The translations under genes and the position numbers were made by a program. Below, piece by piece: positions 3,256 through 30,822 of a DNA stretch of 32,000 bases. Where the stretch lies: the NCBI GenBank assembly GCA_041662745.1, contig JBAZRV010000001.1, forward strand, positions 60,001 to 92,000. The letters are read 5' to 3'. Numbering within the stretch: position 1 is the stretch's first letter; each line of letters begins with the position of its first letter. The DNA is from Patescibacteria group bacterium. GTDB lineage: Bacteria; Patescibacteriota; Patescibacteriia; 2-01-FULL-39-33. A model generated the notes under the pieces. The model was not told where the DNA came from. It saw only the letters and a program-made list of their open reading frames with translations, and ran no database searches.

Positions 3256-3291
3256 CAAAAATAAAACCGCGCTGGCAATAAGCCAGCGCGG
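3256..3291 (-). terminator. rho-independent terminator downstream of paralog A
   Basis: 10-bp GC-rich stem ccgcgctggc / gccagcgcgg (3267-3276 / 3282-3291) with a 5-nt loop, followed on the minus strand by a U-rich tract (plus-strand A-run 3257-3266). Confidence 0.7.
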
Positions 3292-3344
3292 GAAAATAAC
3301 GATTCCAAGAGGTCAAGGTTCAAGGAATCAAGGTGACAAGCCTG

Positions 3345-3386
3345 CCTACCGGCAGGCAGGCTCGGCCTACCGGCGGGCAGGCTCGC
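3345..3386. repeat. 21-bp tandem duplication (2 copies, 2 mismatches) spanning the stop codon of paralog A
   Basis: cctaccggcaggcaggctcgg (3345-3365) and cctaccggcgggcaggctcgc (3366-3386). The TAG stop (3367-3369) lies in copy 2, and the equivalent 'cta' recurs in copy 1. Confidence 0.9.
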
Positions 3387-4104
3387 GGACAACAGCGAAC
3401 CGCCAAACGCCGCTGAAGCCACCCCCAAGACAGTCCAGGCTCAGAGCGCGCCTCGCACCATCCCCGCTGAGGCAAGCGAAGAAGCGGTAGCCGGCACGGC
3501 GCCAAATTGAACCCAGTGCGGCAATGGGGTATAGCCGTTGCAATTCGGGGTGGGCCGCACCCAGAGCCAGCAGTTCTTCAATCTGAGCAAAAAGATAGCG
3601 ATAATTCGCTCCTTGCTTGGCCAGCCAATCATTGACTTCTTTCAATTTGGCAATAATCTGATCGCCATTGCTGAAATCCCGATTGAAGTGGAGTAATTCC
3701 ACTTTGATTTTCCGCTTACCCGCTCCATTGAAAGGGAAATGATCGGCGATGATGTTGGGATTGGGCCAGTCATAGCGGCCGGCGGCGATCATCTGCGCGA
3801 GATTCTTACTGGGATCAATGATCACATCGTAAACGCCGACCAGATAAGAGGAGACAATTTGTTTGGCGGCGATCCTTGTCTTTTGGGTCGCAGGCATCTC
3901 GGCGACAATCAATTCTCCTATCTTGCGAATCGTACCCTCGCCATTAACGCTCGCCAAATAAAGAAGGCACCTGTCAAAATCACCGCCAAGTTCGCCTATA
4001 ACCTTGATCAAGGTGGCGACAATCTCGGTAATCCTGCCCCAATACTTTAGGAGCAACCTCACTGTTATTTCCGCTTCGGCTTTGTTTGGATTTCTCTTGC
4101 CCAT
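3367..4104 (-). CDS. hypothetical protein, paralog A of a 245-aa GC-rich family
   Basis: 245 aa and full-length homologous to 10393..11130. Shared blocks include AAKQIV, MIAAG-YD, ELL-FN--FSNGDQ-IAKL-EVNDWLA-QGA, ELLALGAAHP-LQRL-PIAALGSIW and WRFAVVREP. It has its own consensus promoter, an AAGGAGAAG RBS and a terminator. I recognise no catalytic motif. Confidence 0.8.
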   Translation of the reverse strand: MGKRNPNKAEAEITVRLLLKYWGRITEIVATLIKVIGELGGDFDRCLLYLASVNGEGTIRKIGELIVAEMPATQKTRIAAKQIVSSYLVGVYDVIIDPSKNLAQMIAAGRYDWPNPNIIADHFPFNGAGKRKIKVELLHFNRDFSNGDQIIAKLKEVNDWLAKQGANYRYLFAQIEELLALGAAHPELQRLYPIAALGSIWRRAGYRFFACLSGDGARRALSLDCLGGGFSGVWRFAVVREPARR

Positions 4105-4210
4105 GTCTCTTCTCCTTTTTTGGCCTAATCCCTCATCTCGACCCTATGCCGAAACCCCAGATTAGCCGTTTTTAGGTGCGAATCAGCTTTGCCCGCGGGG
4201 CAAAAGCTAA
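4105..4210 (-). promoter_or_regulatory. conserved, probably structured 5' leader of paralog A
   Basis: The RNA begins with a 5' hairpin (arms 4185-4194 / 4198-4208), followed by GCACCUAAAAAC (4168-4179). A second helix pairs GGCUAAUC (4160-4167) with GAUUAGGCC (4122-4130), followed by CCAAAAAAGGAGAAG and the ATG. The same architecture occurs upstream of paralog B with compensatory changes. Confidence 0.5.
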
Positions 4211-4216
4211 TAGATG

Positions 4217-4245
4217 ATTATATTGCCTAAATAGTTATTTGTCAA
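4217..4245 (-). promoter_or_regulatory. perfect-consensus sigma70 promoter (TTGACA-17-TATAAT) of paralog A
   Basis: Minus strand: TTGACA at 4240-4245, 17-nt spacer, TATAAT at 4217-4222. Confidence 0.75.
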
Positions 4246-10335: not shown

Positions 10336-10376
10336 AAATTAAAAAAGCCGCGCAACAGTTATTGGCTGTTACGCGG
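10336..10376 (-). terminator. rho-independent terminator of paralog B (copy 1 of a repeated hairpin module)
   Basis: Minus-strand RNA CCGCGUAACAG-CCAAUAA-CUGUUGCGCGG forms an 11-bp stem with one G.U, followed by CUUUUUU. The 24 nt at 10353-10376 are identical to 11324-11347. Confidence 0.75.
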
Positions 10377-10392
10377 ACTAAAGAGTCAAGGT

Positions 10393-11130
10393 TCAAGGTT
10401 TCAAAGGGATCGGTTCGCGGACAACAGCGAAACGCCAAGAACTGTAAAGACGATACTCAAGACTAATCAATGACAAGAGGCGCCTCCCCACATTTACGTC
10501 AAGGTAAGCGAAACTGCGATGGCCGGCTTCGTGCTGCCAAATTGATCCCAAAGCGGCAATGGGGTGTAGCCGTTGCAAACCGGGGTGGGCCGCACCCAGA
10601 GCCAGCAATTCCGGCAGGGGGGCGAAGCGGTAGCGATGCTCCGCTCCTTGCTGAGCCAGCCAATCATTGACCTCTTGCAATTTGGCGATGACTTGATCGC
10701 CATTGCTGAAATTTTGATTAAACTGGAGTAACTCTACTCTAATTTTCCTGGTAAGAGGTGAAAGCCTGAAAGAGAAATGACGGTTGTTGATATCCGGATT
10801 AAACGCGTCATACTTGCCGGCGGCAATCATCTGTTCAAGGTCTTGACTGGGATCAACGGTCACATCGTAAATGCCGACAATGCCGACCGGCTGAGGTAAG
10901 ACGATTTGTTTGGCGGCTCTTTTCATAATTCCAGCCTCGGCCGGAGTCAGTCCGGCAATCAATTTGGCGATTGCCCGAAGCGTTGAGTCGCCTTCAGGCT
11001 GAGCCAGCAAATAAAGGCACTGACCGACATTGCCGCCGAATTCCTGGATGTACCTAACCAGATTTACAACAACCGTGAGCAACGCGCCCATGGCCGACAC
11101 CACCGCTTCAACATTCTTCTTTGTCCTCAT
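10393..11130 (-). CDS. hypothetical protein, paralog B of the 245-aa GC-rich family
   Basis: 245 aa, collinear with 3367..4104. DNA identity is locally long, for example ggggtgggccgcacccagagccagca is identical in both. It has its own consensus promoter, an AUAGGAGAAUG RBS and a terminator. Confidence 0.8.
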   Translation of the reverse strand: MRTKKNVEAVVSAMGALLTVVVNLVRYIQEFGGNVGQCLYLLAQPEGDSTLRAIAKLIAGLTPAEAGIMKRAAKQIVLPQPVGIVGIYDVTVDPSQDLEQMIAAGKYDAFNPDINNRHFSFRLSPLTRKIRVELLQFNQNFSNGDQVIAKLQEVNDWLAQQGAEHRYRFAPLPELLALGAAHPGLQRLHPIAALGSIWQHEAGHRSFAYLDVNVGRRLLSLISLEYRLYSSWRFAVVREPIPLKP

Positions 11131-11237
11131 GATGCATTCTCCTATTTGGCCGGTCTCTCATTCCAGCGTTAACGCCAGAACCACGGACCAACCATTTTTA
11201 GGTGCAAATTAGCTCTGCCGACATGACAGTTTGCTAA
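11131..11237 (-). promoter_or_regulatory. conserved structured 5' leader of paralog B
   Basis: A 5' hairpin (about 11209-11237) is followed by GCACCUAAAAAU (11194-11205). The helix GGUUGGUC (11186-11193) / GACCGGCC (11148-11155) has 8 bp including 2 G.U and occupies the same position as the GGCUAAUC/GAUUAGGCC helix of paralog A. CCAAAUAGGAGAA and the ATG follow. Confidence 0.5.
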
Positions 11238-11243
11238 TATCTA

Positions 11244-11272
11244 ATTATATCATATTTACAATATTTTGTCAA
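11244..11272 (-). promoter_or_regulatory. perfect-consensus sigma70 promoter (TTGACA-17-TATAAT) of paralog B
   Basis: Minus strand: TTGACA at 11267-11272, 17-nt spacer, TATAAT at 11244-11249. It is preceded by TGTGGATAA (plus-strand TTATCCACA at 11278-11286). Confidence 0.75.
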
Positions 11273-11312
11273 TACCTTTATCCACAATACTTTTTATCTA
11301 AATTTAGATAAT

Positions 11313-11347
11313 AAAAAACCGCTCAACAGTTATTGGCTGTTACGCGG
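11313..11347 (-). terminator. terminator of the DUF2419-like gene (copy 2 of the repeated hairpin module)
   Basis: Uses the same hairpin sequence as 10348-10376 (24/24 identical core, one extra mismatch in the stem), followed by UUUUUUAU on the minus strand. Confidence 0.65.
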
Positions 11348-11362
11348 GTTAAAGAACGGAGA

Positions 11363-12439
11363 CTAATAAGCCGTAGTGCGAAAAACCGGCTGGAATAATT
11401 GTATCCGCTGTTGGCAAATCTTTTCAAAACGACAGCTATTACATTGGGGCTCTTCCATCTCCGGACAATATTTGCGCGCCAGCCACATTAGCTTGTCAAC
11501 TTCAGCCATGGGCCTGCCGGAAAGAGTAATTACCCGGTCAACGGCAGCATAAACCGCCAACCTGATCGCTAATTCAATCTCAGCGTCAACCCAAGAACGG
11601 GAACTTACGCAATCAGCAAACCGTTCGGCCAAATCCACCAGACCGAGCCGCAAAGCCGAACGCATCAAATGATAATCAACTATCGGACGCCACTGCGGAC
11701 TATCCGGCTCAATCTTTAAAAAATGTTCCGGACGATTGGCTAGGGCCATCGCCAACAACGTGGCCTTTTTATTGAACGGATCGTTGAAACCAACGAGATT
11801 CAAAGCTAGAAAACTGATAAATTCTGATAATTTCGGATATTGCTTAAGAATATCAAGTGATGTTTGAAAAACCTCAGGGAGCTCTAAAAAAGAACGGCCG
11901 TAACCGGTTGTCAGAATATACCTTTGTTCCCAATCCGGAAAAGGCACTGGGCCATTGTCATCGCTGAGAAACTTCACAAAACCGGCCGGTGACAACGAGG
12001 CCAGATTGGTTGGCTTAAAAAAATCCGGATTATTGTCTAACGCCCTTTTAGCCAACTGCCACAGCAAATCGGAACCCTTGATTCTTTTGCCGTTTAAGGT
12101 TCCCCAAAGAGGTTCACTGTAGCCAGCGCAATTACCATACCAAAAGCCGAATTGCTGGGAACAGACATAAAAGAAAAAATCCACGGTCGACGGGTGATTA
12201 AGCGGCGGGTACATGCCACTGGCGACAATCTCTTCGCCTTGGGCATTGCGAAAACTGTAAAAATTCAAAAAATCCCTGTCCGGTGGCAAGCCCTTCAAAT
12301 AAGCGGCCAGCTTCTCTACCGCTTCTTCATTGACAACGGCAATTTCCGACAATCGCGATAATTCTTCTAATTCCATTTCCGTCGCTTCTTCTGCCGCCTC
12401 AGCAACAAGCAGTCTCATAATATCATCCTGACTGTGCAT
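11363..12439 (-). CDS. DUF2419/Qng1-like queuosine-salvage family protein (tentative)
   Basis: Start chosen at MHSQDD (12439), preceded by GGAGGcaaggtt. Blocks resemble my recollection of human C9orf64/Qng1: FFFYVCSQQFGFW (VTDTLNFSFW), IVDYHLMRSALRLGLV (FADYRLPQVLAHLGAL) and a C-terminal ...FRTTAY (..IRCIYY). It carries an extra CPEMEEPQCNSCRFEKIC segment. Confidence 0.5.
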   Translation of the reverse strand: MHSQDDIMRLLVAEAAEEATEMELEELSRLSEIAVVNEEAVEKLAAYLKGLPPDRDFLNFYSFRNAQGEEIVASGMYPPLNHPSTVDFFFYVCSQQFGFWYGNCAGYSEPLWGTLNGKRIKGSDLLWQLAKRALDNNPDFFKPTNLASLSPAGFVKFLSDDNGPVPFPDWEQRYILTTGYGRSFLELPEVFQTSLDILKQYPKLSEFISFLALNLVGFNDPFNKKATLLAMALANRPEHFLKIEPDSPQWRPIVDYHLMRSALRLGLVDLAERFADCVSSRSWVDAEIELAIRLAVYAAVDRVITLSGRPMAEVDKLMWLARKYCPEMEEPQCNSCRFEKICQQRIQLFQPVFRTTAY

Positions 12440-17894: not shown

Positions 17895-17961
17895 ATGTTT
17901 TCTAGCTGCGCTAAAACGAAATTAGTTGATGTTTTCCAGCTGCGCTAAAACGAAATTAGTT
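17895..17961. repeat. 33-nt tandem duplication (period 34, 1 mismatch) of the 3' end of the first pilin-like gene
   Basis: atgttttctagctgcgctaaaacgaaattagtt (17895-17927) and atgttttccagctgcgctaaaacgaaattagtt (17929-17961). The upstream copy encodes ...NFVLAQLENI, and the downstream copy supplies the final N codon, the stop and the 3' UTR. Confidence 0.9.
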
Positions 17962-18302
17962 ATGGCATAAGCGGCAAAAATAATAACTAAACCGATAACG
18001 GCATTATAGATCATCTTCTTGGCTTTTTCCACCTTCTTTTCGTCACCCTGAGCAGTCATCCACCAGAAGCCGGCATAAATAACGATCAAGACCAGAATCA
18101 CTCCCAAAACTCCCAAGACAATGCCAATGGCTGTTCCAATCATTGGCATCAAATCACCACTGCCCAATTGGCTCTCTAATCCGGTTTCATCAAGAAAAGT
18201 TCCGAATTCAACGGCGCGAACAAGCAAAGGCGCAGATAAAGCCATTACAGACAAAGCCAACGCCAGACCTTGCTTGCCGATTTTTTTAATCATTTTTTTC
18301 AT
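17922..18302 (-). CDS. secreted two-TM pilin-like protein (TrbC/VirB2-type T4SS pilin-like), paralog a
   Basis: Start taken at MKKMIKK (18302), because the 66-codon upstream extension overlaps the neighbouring gene. Signal peptide ...LLVRAVE. Conserved core WWMTAQGDEKKVEKAKKMIYNAVIGLVIIFAAYAI is shared with the four neighbours. Confidence 0.75.
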   Translation of the reverse strand: MKKMIKKIGKQGLALALSVMALSAPLLVRAVEFGTFLDETGLESQLGSGDLMPMIGTAIGIVLGVLGVILVLIVIYAGFWWMTAQGDEKKVEKAKKMIYNAVIGLVIIFAAYAITNFVLAQLENIN

Positions 18303-18348
18303 AATTTTTATTTTAGTTATTTTAATGCTAATTTTTTGGGCTATACTC

Positions 18349-18798
18349 TCAATCAGCAGGGTCATCCGGATTAGTCGGTAAACCTTTGAATTCCTGCGAA
18401 GTAACCGCCTGACTGCCGGAGCCGACCCGTTGCAATTGATCCAGAACAAAAGCGGTGATCGCCCAAGCGCCGGCCACGATAGCCAAACCGATAACGGCAT
18501 TATAAATCATTTTCTTGGCTTCATCCACTTTCTTCTCATTGCCCTGCGCCGTCATCCAAGTAAAGCCGGCATAAATCAGCAGTAAAATCAATAAAATGCC
18601 CAAGACACCCAAAACCGCCTTCACTATTCCGCCGACAATAACCGGCAAACTGCCCTGGCCTATGCCCTGTAACCCAGTTTGCTGGCCCACTGCGCCCAGA
18701 TTGGTCAAACCCTCCTTAACCTGCGCCTTTGCCGGGGCGAGAGCAAAAGCAAAAGCGACAAACAGAATAAAAATTGAAATTATAAGTGTTTTTTTCAT
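18349..18798 (-). CDS. secreted two-TM pilin-like protein, paralog b
   Basis: 149 aa. Signal peptide (FALAPAKAQV), core TWMTAQGNEKKVDEAKKMIYNAVIGLAIVAGAWAI and a polar C-terminal tail. Confidence 0.75.
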   Translation of the reverse strand: MKKTLIISIFILFVAFAFALAPAKAQVKEGLTNLGAVGQQTGLQGIGQGSLPVIVGGIVKAVLGVLGILLILLLIYAGFTWMTAQGNEKKVDEAKKMIYNAVIGLAIVAGAWAITAFVLDQLQRVGSGSQAVTSQEFKGLPTNPDDPAD

Positions 18799-18820
18799 AA
18801 GAGGATAAGAGGATAAGAGG
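18797..18820. repeat. 8-bp x3 perfect tandem repeat (ataagagg) abutting and overlapping the start codon of paralog b
   Basis: Plus strand: ataagagg x3 at 18797-18820. On the mRNA strand this reads CCUCUUAU x3, with the last AU plus G forming the AUG. Confidence 0.9.
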
Positions 18821-18887
18821 AAATTAGCAGATCACAAAATATTTTATCATCTCCTAATCTCCCCCTAAGGGGAGAAAATAATCTTGA

Positions 18888-19286
18888 CTAAGCTCCGGTA
18901 CTGCCGACAATCGCTCGCAAATTGCTCATGACGAACATGGCAATGGCATAAGCGGCAAAAATAATGACTAAGCCGATGATACCGGCATAAATCATTTTCT
19001 TGGCCTTGTCAACCTTATCTTGTTCACCGCCGGCAGTCATCCAGATGAAACCGCCGTAAAGGATGATCAAAACCGCGATAACGCCCAAAAAGCCCATGGC
19101 TACGTTCAGGATTCCGCCAATAATACTATTGAGGTTTCCTTGTTCAATCCCGGCCGTGCTGGCTATAAGATCTAAATCAATGTTTTGCACATCATCCTGC
19201 GCGCTGACCAAAACCGGCAAAGCGAACATGGACATCGCCACGACAATCAACATGGAAGCCAATAATTTCTTTAAAGTTTTTTTCAT
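18888..19286 (-). CDS. secreted two-TM pilin-like protein, paralog c
   Basis: 132 aa. Signal peptide (LPVLVSAQD) and core IWMTAGGEQDKVDKAKKMIYAGIIGLVIIFAAYAI. Strong RBS GGGAGGUGA 6 nt upstream of the ATG. Confidence 0.8.
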   Translation of the reverse strand: MKKTLKKLLASMLIVVAMSMFALPVLVSAQDDVQNIDLDLIASTAGIEQGNLNSIIGGILNVAMGFLGVIAVLIILYGGFIWMTAGGEQDKVDKAKKMIYAGIIGLVIIFAAYAIAMFVMSNLRAIVGSTGA

Positions 19287-19431
19287 TCTTTGTCACCTCC
19301 CTTCCGTGCTTGCAATCGTCAGATTTTTAATTGTGATCGCAGCTGCGACATCGCAATACCTTACCCGACAGAAGCAAAATTTAAATTATTATTTTAGAGC
19401 ACTGTTTTTTATCGGATGATCCCCTTGCTCT

Positions 19432-19773
19432 TTAGCCGGCGGCGGGAACCAAGATGCTGAACACGAAAGTCACGACAGCATAAGAAGAGAAAATAACCAA
19501 TAACCCCGCAACAGCCCAAATCATGACGGTCTTGCCTTTTTTGATATTATCGGCGCTAATGCCGGCAGTCATCCATAGTATGCCGCCATAAATAAAAGAC
19601 AGGAGAGCGGCGATGCCGACAAGGCCTAAAAGCGCATTAATCAGCCGAGCGGCCAGAGCGGGAATCGGTTCGTCTGGCAACTTCAACGGATCAATCAATT
19701 GGACCGCTGAAACTGAAAGCGGCAAAATGATAAGAAGCAACGAGCACAATATTGTCTTAAAAAAATTTTTCAT
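19432..19773 (-). CDS. secreted two-TM pilin-like protein, paralog d
   Basis: 113 aa. Signal peptide (LPLSVSAVQ) and core LWMTAGISADNIKKGKTVMIWAVAGLLVIFSSYAV. Only 10 nt separate it from the stop of paralog e. Confidence 0.7.
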   Translation of the reverse strand: MKNFFKTILCSLLLIILPLSVSAVQLIDPLKLPDEPIPALAARLINALLGLVGIAALLSFIYGGILWMTAGISADNIKKGKTVMIWAVAGLLVIFSSYAVVTFVFSILVPAAG

Positions 19774-19783
19774 AAAATTTTCA

Positions 19784-20206
19784 CTAAACGCAAGTAGTTC
19801 CGAAGGAACTGCCGACCAAGGAAGTAAATAAAAAGTTTACCATGGTAAAAGCGGCTAAAATTATAACTAAAGCGATAACCGTATTAACCATCAAGCTTTT
19901 GCCTTTCTTGATTTTATTCTGATCGCCGAAAGATAACAGCCAAAACCAAGTACCGCCATAAATAAACAACAGCAAGGCGACAATGCCGGAAAAAGACAGG
20001 ATCATATTAGTGCCGGTAATGCCAACCTGAAGCAAATCGCAAAGACCGCAAACGCCGTTACAAAAACATTGATCGCTGATATCTTTGAGTAAATAGGAAG
20101 ACGGGCCAGTGGTCGGCTTGGCCGTACAGGCGGCCAAAACTGCCGGAGTATTCAACGCCAGCAACACCAATAAAACACTCAATATTTTCAGTCCCTTTCT
20201 AAACAT
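19784..20206 (-). CDS. divergent Cys-rich pilin-like protein, paralog e (possible lipoprotein)
   Basis: 140 aa. Lipobox-like VLAAC after the signal peptide, 7 Cys (CFCNGVCGLC), and a core FGDQNKIKKGKSLMVNTVIALVIILAAF homologous to the neighbours. Confidence 0.65.
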   Translation of the reverse strand: MFRKGLKILSVLLVLLALNTPAVLAACTAKPTTGPSSYLLKDISDQCFCNGVCGLCDLLQVGITGTNMILSFSGIVALLLFIYGGTWFWLLSFGDQNKIKKGKSLMVNTVIALVIILAAFTMVNFLFTSLVGSSFGTTCV

Positions 20207-21730: not shown

Positions 21731-21771
21731 AAAAAAATCACCCCTCGGAATCCATGGCGGACTCCGAGGGG
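21731..21771 (-). terminator. rho-independent terminator of 21788..22453
   Basis: 9-bp stem cccctcgga (21741-21749) / tccgagggg (21763-21771), followed on the minus strand by U8 (plus-strand A-run 21731-21738). Confidence 0.8.
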
Positions 21772-21787
21772 CGGTGAAAGTTCTAAT

Positions 21788-22453
21788 CTAATTATTAGTA
21801 TCCTTGTGGTACTGCTCCAGCAAGGCCTGGAGATCGGTCTTCTGGCTCTTGCTCACCGAGTGGTGCAAGGGCCGAGTCGGGCGGGCGATGATTTCCGCCG
21901 CCCGAATGCTGACGTTCGCCGTTATTTGGGCGTTATCGGCGGCGTCTTGCGCGGTCTTGGCCTTCTTGTCGGCCGTATCAGCCAATGCGCCGACATCATC
22001 AATCGACTCCTCCATCAACTTGTCGTACTCCTTGACGATGGCGGGTTCAATGTCCCAGATGCCGTTGGTCAGCAACTTTTTGACTTCCTTCTCGGACTTC
22101 TGCCCGAGTTCGGAATCATCGCCTCCTCGCGCTTGGATTGCCTGCCACTTGGCAAACAACGGATCGTTCTCGGCCTGGACGCGCTTATCCAGACGAGATC
22201 TTACCTTGGCGACGCCGGACGCCAGCGCTTCATCGGCCACGGACTGACTTGCCGTCAAGGCAATCATGTCCGTTTTCAGCAAGGACACGTCCTTTCTCAC
22301 ATTGCCGATGACGGACGCGATAAGGAGTATCAAGACCAGGCAAATTAAGAACCCGGCCCAAACGACATGCGGAACGGCTGAAGCAGACTTATCACGACGC
22401 CGACCGCCGGACTGTTGGCTTACCTGTTGAGTGTCTTGGTCATTATCCGACAT
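21788..22453 (-). CDS. hypothetical single-pass membrane protein with a coiled-coil ectodomain (GC-rich orphan)
   Basis: 221 aa. Polar N-terminus, one TM (VVWAGFLICLVLILLIASVIG), then an A/K/D/E-rich helical region. RBS GAGGAGGAAG, a consensus promoter and a strong terminator. Confidence 0.7.
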   Translation of the reverse strand: MSDNDQDTQQVSQQSGGRRRDKSASAVPHVVWAGFLICLVLILLIASVIGNVRKDVSLLKTDMIALTASQSVADEALASGVAKVRSRLDKRVQAENDPLFAKWQAIQARGGDDSELGQKSEKEVKKLLTNGIWDIEPAIVKEYDKLMEESIDDVGALADTADKKAKTAQDAADNAQITANVSIRAAEIIARPTRPLHHSVSKSQKTDLQALLEQYHKDTNN

Positions 22454-22531
22454 GATTCTTCCTCCTCTTTCCTTGTTTTTTGGTGTTTATCTCATTGTAG
22501 GTGCTTTCGGCTCACATTGCCGAATCACTCC

Positions 22532-22560
22532 ATTATATCATACCTACACCATTTTGTCAA
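22532..22560 (-). promoter_or_regulatory. perfect-consensus sigma70 promoter (TTGACA-17-TATAAT) of 21788..22453
   Basis: Minus strand: TTGACA at 22555-22560, 17-nt spacer, TATAAT at 22532-22537. The upstream TGTGGATAAAtGGAT (plus-strand TTATCCACA at 22566-22574) is homologous to the paralog-B promoter. Confidence 0.75.
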
Positions 22561-22638
22561 TCCATTTATCCACAGATAATAGTTATTCATTTAAAATTAG
22601 CTAAAATTTGACACAATTAATGCCATTTTACGACTAAT

Positions 22639-28427: not shown

Positions 28428-28970
28428 CTATGCCGAGACGCTCGGATCAGCCTTCTCTATCAATAAATCACTATATGACACCGAAATAAGATCTGACTCC
28501 GGTATATCAAAAAGTTTAAGATATTCTTTGCATTGTTCAAGTAGCTTATTTTTTCCAATACTTCCATCTTCATCAATTGCTTCTATTTCCACGAACGTAC
28601 CAAGTTTTTCAACGGTATCAATGTGGAATTTTACATTCCCCATAAAATAAATCTCTCGTTTTTTGTCTACAATAGTTAATATGCCATTGGCATTAACTAA
28701 TATTAATTTAAGTGAGCTTTCTGGATCTGATTTGAACAAAATAACATCTGATTGTTTTGGACCTTCTTTATTTTCCCGTTCATAATAAACCAGATAATTT
28801 TCAATGTTTCCCTCTCGTAATTTTAACCTTCCGTGGTTAACTTTGAAATAAGTATCAATCTGATGATCAACCCCCCTAAAATCAGCATTGTTGGATTTCA
28901 GGAGTTCACGAACCTTTTCGTGATTATTTGATTTAGCTTTTATTTCAATGTTTATATGATTCATATGCAT
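28428..28970 (-). CDS. CYTH-domain protein (class IV adenylate cyclase / triphosphate-tunnel metalloenzyme-like)
   Basis: 180 aa. N-terminal beta-strand motif NIEIKAK (family signature ExExK), then HQIDTYF, GRLKLRE, LVYYERE, KKREIYF, FHIDTVEKLGTFVEIEA. RBS GGAGUGACUC precedes the ATG. The gene is very AT-rich. Confidence 0.75.
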   Translation of the reverse strand: MHMNHINIEIKAKSNNHEKVRELLKSNNADFRGVDHQIDTYFKVNHGRLKLREGNIENYLVYYERENKEGPKQSDVILFKSDPESSLKLILVNANGILTIVDKKREIYFMGNVKFHIDTVEKLGTFVEIEAIDEDGSIGKNKLLEQCKEYLKLFDIPESDLISVSYSDLLIEKADPSVSA

Positions 28971-29183
28971 GAGTCACTCCGATGCTAATTTTTGGCGGTG
29001 ACGATGTCCCGAAGTTGGAACCGAAAACGGCTTATAGACGGCTCACTTTCTGGGCCCTTGATCCAATTATAAAGAATCTGAGACATATGCACAAAGAACA
29101 TCTCGAATGGTTTGAAGTGCCGAAGCCGAAGTCAGATAAGGGTAAAAATATGGTCGATTATTCAATCGATAATAAAAACAATG

Positions 29184-29810
29184 TTATTCTTTCTGTAGTC
29201 CAACCAAATCTTCTTGGTTAATGTTTTTATCAAAATTCAATAATTTTGCGTCTGAAAAGAGTTTAATAATTCCAATACTATGCCACATCGTTAAATGTAT
29301 ATTTGGAATCAAAAATTCAAACTGTTGGTCGTCTGTTCTGTTAAGGTGCAACTTAAAGCTTTCATGATTTGGATGAACAAATCTACAAATCAGCTTATAT
29401 TTTTCTTCGTGGGTTTCTTTAAAATTTGGAGGTAAGAAACTATCCTTTATTTCGTCTTTAATTTCTTTAAGACTCCATTTCTTATTATTAAAAAATTCAT
29501 CGAGCCTACATAAAACCTGTTCTTCTGACGATCCTGAGAATATGTAAAAAACTTTTATATATAATTCATAGATATATCTATAAAGATAAATTGATAAAAA
29601 AATATCATTAGTAACAAGGCTATTCTCCATTGATACATTTAGAGAATACATTTTATTTAAAATACTTGAAGCAAAATACTCTTTTGGGTTATCTTTTCTA
29701 GTTACTGTTCCAAAATTAAAACCCGGTTTGATAATTTGATTGAACAAAACAATTTTATTTTGCAAGGAACTCTTCAAGATAACATTCTCTTTTTTTAAAA
29801 GATTATGCAT
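29184..29810 (-). CDS. hypothetical 208-aa helical protein with a HEPN-like Rx5H motif
   Basis: Uninterrupted ORF, translationally coupled to the upstream gene (6-nt gap). CRFVHPNH (R143..H149) lies in the C-terminal third, before a final amphipathic helix. One 60-nt line (29521-29580) has 14/60 G+C. Confidence 0.65.
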   Translation of the reverse strand: MHNLLKKENVILKSSLQNKIVLFNQIIKPGFNFGTVTRKDNPKEYFASSILNKMYSLNVSMENSLVTNDIFLSIYLYRYIYELYIKVFYIFSGSSEEQVLCRLDEFFNNKKWSLKEIKDEIKDSFLPPNFKETHEEKYKLICRFVHPNHESFKLHLNRTDDQQFEFLIPNIHLTMWHSIGIIKLFSDAKLLNFDKNINQEDLVGLQKE

Positions 29811-29816
29811 AATTTA

Positions 29817-30362
29817 CTATAGTTCATATTTCCACCCCGGTTTCCACGCTTTTGTTTTTCTCCAATCTTCTGCAAGCGCTTGTTTCCAAGTTTTGCCTTT
29901 CAAGAGTACATCAAGGGCAAGTTGCGGTGCTTTGTGAGCGACGATAGCTACATGCTTACCTTCGTAGTTCTTTTTTAGAAATTCAAAGAAGTCTGCAACA
30001 CGAACTTTCACATCCTCGTAACTTTCACCTTCAGGAAAGGGATTTTCGATGCATTCTTCCTCCTGCATCGGTTCGACAATATTCGATGACGCACCGTTCA
30101 GCTTGCCGTAATTACATTCGCGAAGTCTCGCATCAGGAATGATTTGATATATACCTTCCCACGCAAGCTTTGCAGAATCATGAGCTCGCTTTAGGTCAGA
30201 ACAGAAAACCACATCAAATTTCTGGTCCTTGGTCTGATCTTTGAGCGCAACTGATTGCTGTGCTCCAAGCTCAGAAAGATCAACGTCCTTCCAGCCAGAG
30301 GAAATATGCTGTTCGTTGTCAGTTGTGGTTCCGTGTACGAAATAAGTAATTTTGATTGCCAT
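29817..30362 (-). CDS. histidine phosphatase (phosphoglycerate-mutase-like) superfamily protein with an atypical VHG motif
   Basis: 181 aa. YFVHGTTTDNE stands in place of xxRHGxTxxN. Also present are SDLKRAHDSA, RLRECNYGKLNG, GESYEDVKVRV and VAIVAHKAP (second catalytic His). Confidence 0.8.
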   Translation of the reverse strand: MAIKITYFVHGTTTDNEQHISSGWKDVDLSELGAQQSVALKDQTKDQKFDVVFCSDLKRAHDSAKLAWEGIYQIIPDARLRECNYGKLNGASSNIVEPMQEEECIENPFPEGESYEDVKVRVADFFEFLKKNYEGKHVAIVAHKAPQLALDVLLKGKTWKQALAEDWRKTKAWKPGWKYEL

Positions 30363-30731: not shown

Positions 30732-30822
30732 TGGCGGAGAGGGGGAGATTCGAACTCCCGAGGGGCTATAAACCCCTGCCGCTTTTCGAGAGCGGTACCT
30801 TCAACCACTCAGACACCTCTCC
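30732..30822 (-). tRNA. tRNA-Ser (anticodon CGA), type II with a long variable arm and encoded CCA
   Basis: The reverse complement folds by hand as GGAGAGG-UG-UCUGAGUGGUUGAAGGUA-CCGCU-CUCGAAA-AGCGG-CAGGGGUUUAUAGCCCCUC-GGGAG-UUCGAAU-CUCCC-CCUCUCC-G-CCA. Confidence 0.9.

Follow-up and report, generated by a model that had tools for sequence, protein, structure and literature searches.

Two paralogous genes and a probable template

The stretch of DNA analysed here, which we call the window, is 32,000 nucleotides (nt) long and comes from a metagenome-assembled genome (MAG) of a Patescibacteria group bacterium (NCBI GenBank assembly GCA_041662745.1, contig JBAZRV010000001.1, positions 60,001 to 92,000 of the forward strand). 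On its minus strand lie two full-length paralogous genes, copies A and B, whose products of 245 amino acids (aa) are 54% identical to each other (E = 4e-80). An initial annotation, made from the sequence alone, described the pair correctly, each gene in a self-contained unit running from promoter to terminator, and took them for an orphan family, perhaps a selfish or defence-related cassette. That observation stands, but the interpretation is replaced here: we consider it probable, at roughly 85%, that both open reading frames (ORFs) are paralogous variable-protein (target) genes of a diversity-generating retroelement (DGR) in a Patescibacteria (Candidate Phyla Radiation, CPR) genome. Overall the earlier interpretation is partly supported; what it missed is that the gene ends, at its 3' side, in a DGR variable repeat (VR).

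3367..4104, minus strand: copy A coding sequence, an ORF of 245 aa identical to NCBI WC668_00310
10393..11130, minus strand: copy B coding sequence, an ORF of 245 aa identical to NCBI WC668_00340
3385..3506, minus strand: copy A VR, 122 nt, encoding WRRAGYRFFACLSGDGARRALSLDCLGGGFSGVWRFAVVR; gap-free alignment to the template repeat of contig L002 (E = 2.5e-22)

The template repeat (TR) that matches copy A lies on contig L002 (7632-7753), about 270 nt past the stop codon of the second of two tandem family genes, and reads as an adenine-rich copy of the VR scaffold, WHHAGNRNFAYLNRNDAKRNLNLNYLENDFNDNWRFAVVR. The two tandem genes (L002/L014) encode proteins identical to WC668_02060 and WC668_02065, two further paralogs from the same MAG, and because they share the WC668 locus-tag prefix with the window proteins we place the TR in the window's own genome, a small one with at least four family members. 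Of the 31 adenines of this TR, 24 are substituted in the copy A VR, compared with 4 of the 91 other bases (Fisher p = 2.4e-15); three of those four non-adenine differences fall in the tail, TGGCGGTTCGCT, where copy A equals the TR allele of a related locus (L017), and a single one lies inside the mutagenised segment. Adenine makes up 6% of the VR, compared with 25% of the TR and 27% of the remaining gene sequence. The paralogs next to the TR differ from it at 23/31 adenines and 3/91 other positions in one case and at 15/31 and 0/91 in the other. It is because the 3' end is a DGR VR, in our interpretation, that it is poor in adenine and rich in G, that its DNA contains conserved runs and that a hairpin sits at the stop codon.

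A strain-level ortholog of copy A (L015, L016) has flanks 95-98% identical to the window. In this single strain comparison, the L015 ortholog differs from copy A at 18 of the 31 TR-adenine sites of the VR and at 8 of the 91 others, which suggests that the copy A VR may have been rewritten since the L015 and window strains split.

The genes of a retroelement accompany the family elsewhere, as family members adjoin Avd and reverse transcriptase (RT) genes in five independent loci. On two Falkowbacteria contigs (L008, L009) the family gene is followed by bAvd (PF22296) and then an RVT_1 RT, and in L011 by bAvd and a truncated RT-like fragment; phmmer searches with RT and Avd sequences placed both genes beside a family member in L003 and L006, and in L017 two family genes are followed by TR, Avd and RT. 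L017 is 82% identical in DNA to L002. The avd gene lies on the strand opposite to TR and RT, and the RT shares 59-70% identity with many Patescibacteria RTs. In L003, L006, L008 and L011 the 3' end of the family gene recurs downstream as a non-coding direct repeat of 127-170 nt; between the two copies in L003, 24 of 34 template adenines differ, versus 2 of 93 other positions, the adenine-confined pattern that is the DGR signature of a TR and its VR. L003 belongs, with L001, L004 and L005, to one Buchananbacteria MAG; its DGR-proximal target has the promoter and leader of the window copies, and of the 34 adenines of the L003 TR the L002 TR keeps 33. Another Buchananbacteria member, P0029, fits the TR of its own genome, with differences at 22 of 33 adenines versus 3 of 93 other positions.

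Between a promoter-like TATAAT and the TR lies a stretch of ~170-230 nt (L002 7455-7630; L003 10800-10985; L008 4960-5188), conserved between L002 and L003 as GGGTTAATA..CCGCGG..CGGGATACCC..GATTGCT.GGCGTCTGATG.TGGCGGG. It has no Rfam match and is probably the structured 5' part of the DGR template RNA.

Putative recipient-site elements and the standing of copy A

For the site of initiation of mutagenic homing (IMH) and the hairpin of a recipient site we took the criteria of Guo 2011 (PMC3240598). The features concerned are as follows.

3382..3405, minus strand: VR tail TGGCGGTTCGCTGTTGTCCGCGAG, GC-rich, adenine-free and IMH-like, conserved in all family VRs
3340..3384, minus strand: 21-nt tandem duplication GAGCCTGCCYGCCGGTAGGCM across the stop codon
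3313..3333, minus strand: tandem CCTTGA repeats, between the VR hairpin and the terminator of copy A
10386..10398, minus strand: CCTTGA repeats of copy B, overlapping its TGA stop codon

The tail of copy A ends in GAG where the TRs have TAT or CAG, and the TRs diverge just after GTCCGC (the copy A VR ends in GTCCGCGAG, the TRs in GTCCGCTAT or GTCCGCCAG); by analogy we infer that the VR tail may be an IMH and the TR end its IMH*-like counterpart. Published DGR target hairpins stand 4-34 bp past the VR and combine a GC stem of 7-10 bp with a GRNA loop of 4 nt on the sense strand (PMC3240598). In copy A the second unit of the tandem duplication folds as GCCTGCC-GGTA-GGCAGGC (3357..3340), 27 nt after the VR, and fits the published stem, loop and distance; the proximal paralogs have a 10-bp version of the same hairpin. 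Both 21-nt units of copy A can also pair as one long hairpin (DNA fold -37.8 kcal/mol, z = -7.1).

The CCTTGA repeats have three matches in the window versus 0.01 expected, all downstream of copies A and B, and elsewhere in the loci almost every match directly follows a family VR, that of the distant L011 included. They were not seen after the TRs of L003, L006 and L017, the three with readable downstream sequence. It is tempting to speculate that the repeats could be a clade-specific recipient signal which, together with the GRNA hairpin, enables homing in trans into dispersed paralogs, the roles of tail, hairpin and repeats all being read from their sequence and position.

By the established DGR mechanism, the TR RNA would be reverse-transcribed with misincorporation at adenines and the resulting cDNA would replace the VR of the target gene. 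The Avd and RT genes needed for this would lie past the end of the TR contig, at the position that they occupy in four relatives (L017, L003, L006, L008), and the promoter, structured leader and terminator, which the DGR-proximal target also carries, are the family's normal expression unit. A VR equal to its TR except at adenines, an IMH-like tail and a GRNA hairpin together argue that copy A is a remote target acted on in trans, and one whose last rewriting was apparently recent when measured against the divergence of strains. These comparisons seem to us to give good support to copy A as a DGR variable-protein gene whose VR is templated by the TR, and its current activity appears likely.

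Several observations weigh against the DGR reading or its extension to both copies. Within the window, blastn with both 3' ends and the TR returned only copies A and B, and tblastn with RT and Avd returned nothing, so that no TR, RT or Avd is present there. The link between the window and the TR contig consists of the common locus-tag prefix and of MAG binning. Only 23 nt of L002 follow the TR, which leaves Avd and RT of this genome outside the sequence, and a homology search for the RT gave about 8,000 near-equal Patescibacteria RTs, none attributable to WC668. A metagenome scan with the VR tail TGGCGNTTCGCTGTTGTCCGC gave only two Buchananbacteria VRs and no TR. The substitutions themselves are skewed, with 19 of the 24 at copy A adenines leading to G, whereas those of the proximal paralogs are more even (G 12, T 6, C 5; and G 8, C 4, T 3); selection for Gly, Arg and Ser codons is the one possible cause that we can suggest. 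The evidence for hypervariation consists of the one comparison with L015. Copy B fits the recovered TR poorly, as described below, and the predicted fold has no significant match. Finally, in Buchananbacteria the orthologs A' and B' have about 20/93 non-adenine mismatches to the TR of their own genome; with copy B and the paralog P0016 included, the departures come to 20-23 of ~92 such sites, and 3-nt indels occur in some of these copies. From this poor fit of A' and B' it follows that remote copies can fall out of the DGR system, and the family as a whole seems to mix current targets with copies that are out of the system or tied to unrecovered templates.

These departures also bring up the alternative that both window copies descend from DGR variable-protein genes but neither is rewritten today, that the RT acts only on the paralogs adjacent to the TR and that the likeness of copy A to the template records a past event. 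Drift at non-adenine sites in copy B as well as in A', B' and P0016 is what would be expected, the 21-nt tandem duplication sits in the recipient region of copy A, and the case for activity depends on sequence comparison. Yet the mutagenised segment of copy A has one non-adenine mismatch, the three in the tail correspond to a known TR allele, and outside the VR the gene is about 65% identical to its paralog. The L015 ortholog, moreover, differs mainly at TR-adenine sites, and the IMH-like tail and perfect GRNA hairpin of copy A are intact. We regard it as unlikely that both copies are fossils.

Copy B and the inheritance of the cassettes

Copy B presents a different picture.

10417..10541, minus strand: VR-like region of copy B, 125 nt; scaffold codons retained, diverged from the recovered TR

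Its VR-like region differs from the L002 TR at 18/31 adenine and 23/91 other sites and contains a 3-nt insertion, BLAST of the TR against it gives similarity in fragments only, and no GRNA hairpin follows it. Copy B thus lacks the adenine-confined, indel-free differences that relate a VR to its TR. It retains the tail GTTGTCCGCGA, the CCTTGA repeats, the promoter and the leader. It is an intact family member with the look of an expressed gene but not a demonstrated current target of the recovered TR, being either a frozen former target or the target of a TR that was not recovered, and its current activity is doubtful. The second of these possibilities, in its strong form, would make copy B an active target of a second TR, or of a second DGR, unrecovered from the same genome. 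The retained elements would agree with that, scaffold codons included, as would the fact that mismatches are still commoner at TR-adenine sites than elsewhere (p = 0.002) and that A' and P0016 appear, by eye, to share several non-adenine departures from the Buchananbacteria TR, as they would if a different template had been their source. However, no second TR was seen in any locus examined, the GRNA hairpin is missing, and the VR differences between B and B' fall at all three codon positions, as in drift. An active copy B of this kind seems distinctly improbable to us.

Gene order bears on whether the cassettes move. In the Buchananbacteria contig L001 the order is that of the window: RNase Y, LemA, a 357-aa gene, B', M48, YmdB, HU, beta-helix, radical SAM, A' and methyltransferase, with the whole promoter-leader-gene-terminator module kept at both sites, so that the relative retains both copies with the module instead of a single copy without it. 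Because both positions are syntenic in that genome, the cassette sites appear to be vertically inherited and not mobile, and a selfish cassette, or a mobile one of integron- or transposon-like kind, is unlikely. No recombinase was present among the neighbouring genes scanned (about 2.5-14.7 kb and 21.8-22.5 kb). Two genes of L001 are additional to those of the window, one for a NUDIX protein and the other a divergent third family member, which comes with a promoter, leader and terminator of its own. This third member (11003-11766) follows the copy A ortholog and has no counterpart in the window; its N-terminal domain and core are recognisable, its C-terminus is extended and the VR scaffold (WRFAVVR) is lost.

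The sole hint of mobility at the window sites is a pair of 43-nt direct repeats, spaced by 971 nt, that flank the whole of cassette B. They correspond to two terminators.

11313..11355, minus strand: terminator of the upstream 381-aa gene, 91% identical over 43 nt to the terminator region of copy B (10342-10384)

By blastn the two terminators share a core of 24/24 identical positions, and the Buchananbacteria ortholog of copy B has a different upstream terminator. These repeats, the self-contained unit around each copy, the absence of an annotated domain and a serine recombinase four genes upstream of the L002 paralog pair could together be taken to mean that the pair is a duplicated, lineage-specific orphan gene on mobile or selfish cassettes, its C-terminus shaped by ordinary divergence or positive selection and with no retroelement involved. 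We find this very improbable and already contradicted by the present evidence: a TR exists and its mismatches are adenine-specific (in round figures, p = 2e-15), Avd and RT stand beside family members in five loci, the family has thousands of cluster representatives (7,635, see below), both sites are syntenic in another genome and viral contigs yielded no relatives.

The recombinase is a large serine recombinase (L002 1178-2662, minus strand; Resolvase, Recombinase, Zn_ribbon_recom), and with two tRNA genes it lies about 3-5 kb upstream of the DGR-proximal paralog pair, which hints that the DGR locus may be in or beside an integrated element.

Protein family, expression module and relation to known systems

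A word-seeded search recovered 54 relatives, and all of those with a source name are from Patescibacteria (unclassified Patescibacteria, Buchananbacteria, Falkowbacteria). A profile search over 1.84 billion cluster representatives (clusters at 50% identity) matched 7,635 of them at E <= 1e-3 and, at the stricter E <= 1e-30, 1,655; in some the C-terminal domain is present two or three times in tandem. The family is not an orphan. Scans of both proteins against Pfam, NCBIfam, PADLOC and PHROGs gave nothing above noise, the PADLOC result also leaving the suggested defence role without a match, and sequence searches revealed no well-characterised domain. Pfam models applied to the whole set of 54 relatives found no family in common, a profile search of PDB sequences found nothing relevant and a scan of viral contigs found no family relatives; a profile scan of genome contigs with a tighter alignment yielded five loci.

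The AlphaFold2 model of copy A is confident (pLDDT 93.5 at full length, 96.2 for the C-terminal domain alone) and divides the protein into an N-terminal helical bundle of ~87 aa (residues ~8-87) and an alpha/beta C-terminal domain of ~158 aa. Fold comparison was less informative. Foldseek of the full-length model against PDB and BFVD gave no match at E <= 0.001; the top matches of the C-terminal domain are C-type lectin-like domains, at E >= 0.13 and TM scores of 0.30-0.41, which are not significant, and known DGR variable proteins are absent from the top 50. The matches are suggestive of a divergent C-type-lectin-like fold in the predicted domain. This C-terminal domain is the conserved part of the protein, as had been observed, yet its last ~40 codons mix an invariant scaffold with hypervariable codons, and in the family alignment the invariant positions of the C-terminal ~45 residues (R, L, F, WRFAVVR) alternate with highly variable ones.

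At the other end of the protein, residues 7-25 of copy B (VEAVVSAMGALLTVVVNLV, after MRTKKN) have a mean Kyte-Doolittle hydropathy of 2.06 over 19 residues and resemble a signal anchor, and the equivalent helix of copy A is amphipathic (maximum 1.41); the two copies may differ in localisation, with no clear export signal in these variable proteins of presumably symbiotic bacteria. The earlier guess of a host-interaction or binding protein fits the general view of DGR variable proteins.

The expression signals of the two copies are as first described, down to the terminator loops, and are listed here with the related sites in the window.

4217..4245, minus strand: copy A promoter TTGACA-17-TATAAT, exact match (read 4245..4217)
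11244..11272, minus strand: copy B promoter TTGACA-17-TATAAT with an extended -10, TGATATAAT (read 11272..11244)
22560..22532, minus strand: third TTGACA-N17-TATAAT, driving an unrelated 221-aa ORF (21788..22453)
4105..4211, minus strand: copy A 5' leader, two hairpin domains and the linker UUCGCACCUAAAAACGG, followed by the ribosome-binding site (RBS) AAGGAG
11131..11238, minus strand: copy B 5' leader, with the architecture of copy A
3256..3292, minus strand: copy A intrinsic terminator, 10-bp GC stem, TTATT loop and T-run
10341..10376, minus strand: copy B intrinsic terminator, loop CCAATAA
11278..11286, minus strand: TGTGGATAA, the reverse complement of the DnaA-box consensus TTATCCACA, 5 nt upstream of the copy B -35

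The exact promoter occurs at three sites in the window versus 0.01 expected by chance, and an RBS of AAGGAG / AGGAG type precedes both copies. The neighbours are unrelated housekeeping genes, as described (methyltransferase, ELP3-like radical SAM, beta-helix, HU, YmdB, M48 peptidase, LemA, RNase Y). The reported GC-richness of the copies is present but modest (0.50-0.53 versus about 0.45 for the window), and their longest common exact run is 27 nt (3546-3572 and 10581-10607), not 26. That run falls within 213 nt of the central part of the C-terminal domain, immediately ahead of the VR (3501-3713 versus 10536-10748), over which A and B are 82% identical, compared with ~65% for their other coding DNA outside the VR; gene conversion between the paralogs or strong constraint could account for it. 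The L015 strain ortholog is unusually diverged from copy A at 3721-3840.

For the leader, about 107 nt long, RNAalifold on seven distinct sequences gave a consensus of 26 pairs in two hairpin domains, then the linker UUCGCACCUAAAAYGG and the RBS. The covariance model built on it (R1) scores 117 bits for the copy A leader and 100 bits for that of copy B, and finds leaders on which it was not trained directly upstream of family genes in L007 (E = 1e-10) and L006 (E = 8.5e-9), with weaker matches in L002, L011 and L004 (E = 0.01-0.09). Across 12 aligned leaders 95% of cells are paired and 22 of the 26 pairs change on both sides, figures reached by no shuffle but somewhat inflated, as the alignment was fitted to the model; sliding the pair partners lowers the pairing to 28-47%. 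The leader is found upstream of family members down to 36% protein identity. In Rfam the only match in the window at gathering score is a tRNA, and both leaders gave only sub-threshold matches at chance level. Two ideas about the leader were set aside: its CACCU as an anti-Shine-Dalgarno mimic would have only 3 bp with AGGAG, and the linker GCACCTAMAA as a general motif of the window is not enriched (4 matches versus 4.8 expected).

The simplest guess, since the 5' hairpin begins about 6 nt past the -10 hexamer, is that the leader may stabilise the mRNA; it could also be a cis-regulatory RNA dedicated to DGR variable-protein genes, either a switch that binds a ligand or protein or, again, a 5' stabiliser. 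That the leader and the CCTTGA repeats are new functional classes of non-coding element is a tentative proposal, and one that we would ourselves put below even odds.

The DnaA-box-like 9-mer TGTGGATAA occurs twice in the window (11278-11286 and 22566-22574) versus 0.25 expected, both times at the same offset from a consensus promoter, and again upstream of family promoters in L002 (5874-5882) and L003 (9842-9850); perfect DnaA-box 9-mers precede the -35 of several consensus promoters by 5-6 nt, and in three genomes these include promoters of DGR targets. The copy A promoter is without it. The site could mark a DnaA-regulated promoter or bind another factor.

Three further regions of the window are recorded here. 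The third consensus-promoter cassette (21740-22574, minus strand) consists of TGTGGATAA, TTGACA-17-TATAAT, a 5' hairpin, GCACCTACAA, the 221-aa ORF and a strong terminator; its promoter region is 86% identical to that of copy B over 43 nt, the leader model is not shared, and the ORF is GC-rich, with one hydrophobic segment, a long charged region (probably coiled-coil) and no Pfam match. Five small paralogs of 113-192 aa are encoded in tandem at 17922-20206 (minus strand), with DNA repeats of 186 nt spaced by about 490 nt; each protein has a signal peptide and two hydrophobic helices around the conserved motif YAGFxWMTAxGxxxKVxxAKKMIYNAVIGL, and they seem to resemble the TrbC/VirB2-type pilin-like proteins common in CPR. 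A stretch of low GC (28500-30000; 0.31-0.33 versus about 0.45) with three short ORFs (180-208 aa) adjoins a tRNA-Ser (CGA) gene at 30732-30822 and could be an island at that gene.

The system described here is itself of a known kind, a DGR, probably acting on a copy far from the retroelement; cellular DGRs of Patescibacteria/CPR were reportedly first described by Paul et al. With the prototype, the DGR of Bordetella phage BPP-1 (mtd VR/TR/avd/brt), it shares a VR of ~120-130 nt at the 3' end of the target with the TR elsewhere, differences confined to the adenines of the TR, an IMH-like GC-rich end that is not the same in VR and TR, a GC hairpin whose GRNA loop has 4 nt and which comes a few to ~30 nt after the VR (PMC3240598) and, here in relatives, the Avd and RT genes. 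It differs from BPP-1 in that the genome is that of a CPR cell and not a phage, the target is not a tail-fibre protein, avd is opposite in strand to TR and RT, there are several paralogous targets with at least one on another contig, the VR is followed by additional CCTTGA repeats and the target has a structured 5' leader.

Of the same lineage are the 'clade 2' cellular DGRs of Patescibacteria/CPR (Roux et al., 2021; PMC8144416), whose targets, like ours, lack a recognisable transmembrane or conserved domain. The window gene differs in lying away from the RT/TR locus, and remote targets were undetectable in that survey. In Trichodesmium erythraeum one TR serves both proximal targets and paralogs at dispersed loci, of which only some appear active (PMC8867640). 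The arrangement here is similar, in a different phylum, with a different target architecture and in a small genome with at least four family members known from sequence alone. As in the C-type lectin-fold DGR proteins (Mtd, TvpA, archaeal AvpA, Thermus TaqVP), the VR supplies the last strands of a compact alpha/beta domain, in which variable residues alternate with those of an invariant scaffold, and the best structural matches are C-type lectin-like, but there is no significant sequence or fold match to any solved structure.

What had appeared to be an orphan is in this way turned into an explained case, templated rewriting by a retroelement, and copy A offers a clean example of a remote target in a small CPR genome, a case beyond the reach of large surveys (PMC8144416). 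The target family is very large (7,635 clusters at 50% identity); its structure is predicted with confidence, and Pfam has no model for it. Beyond what is familiar from other DGRs, the covarying leader RNA, the CCTTGA repeats after the VRs and the DnaA-box-like site at consensus promoters are possibly new.

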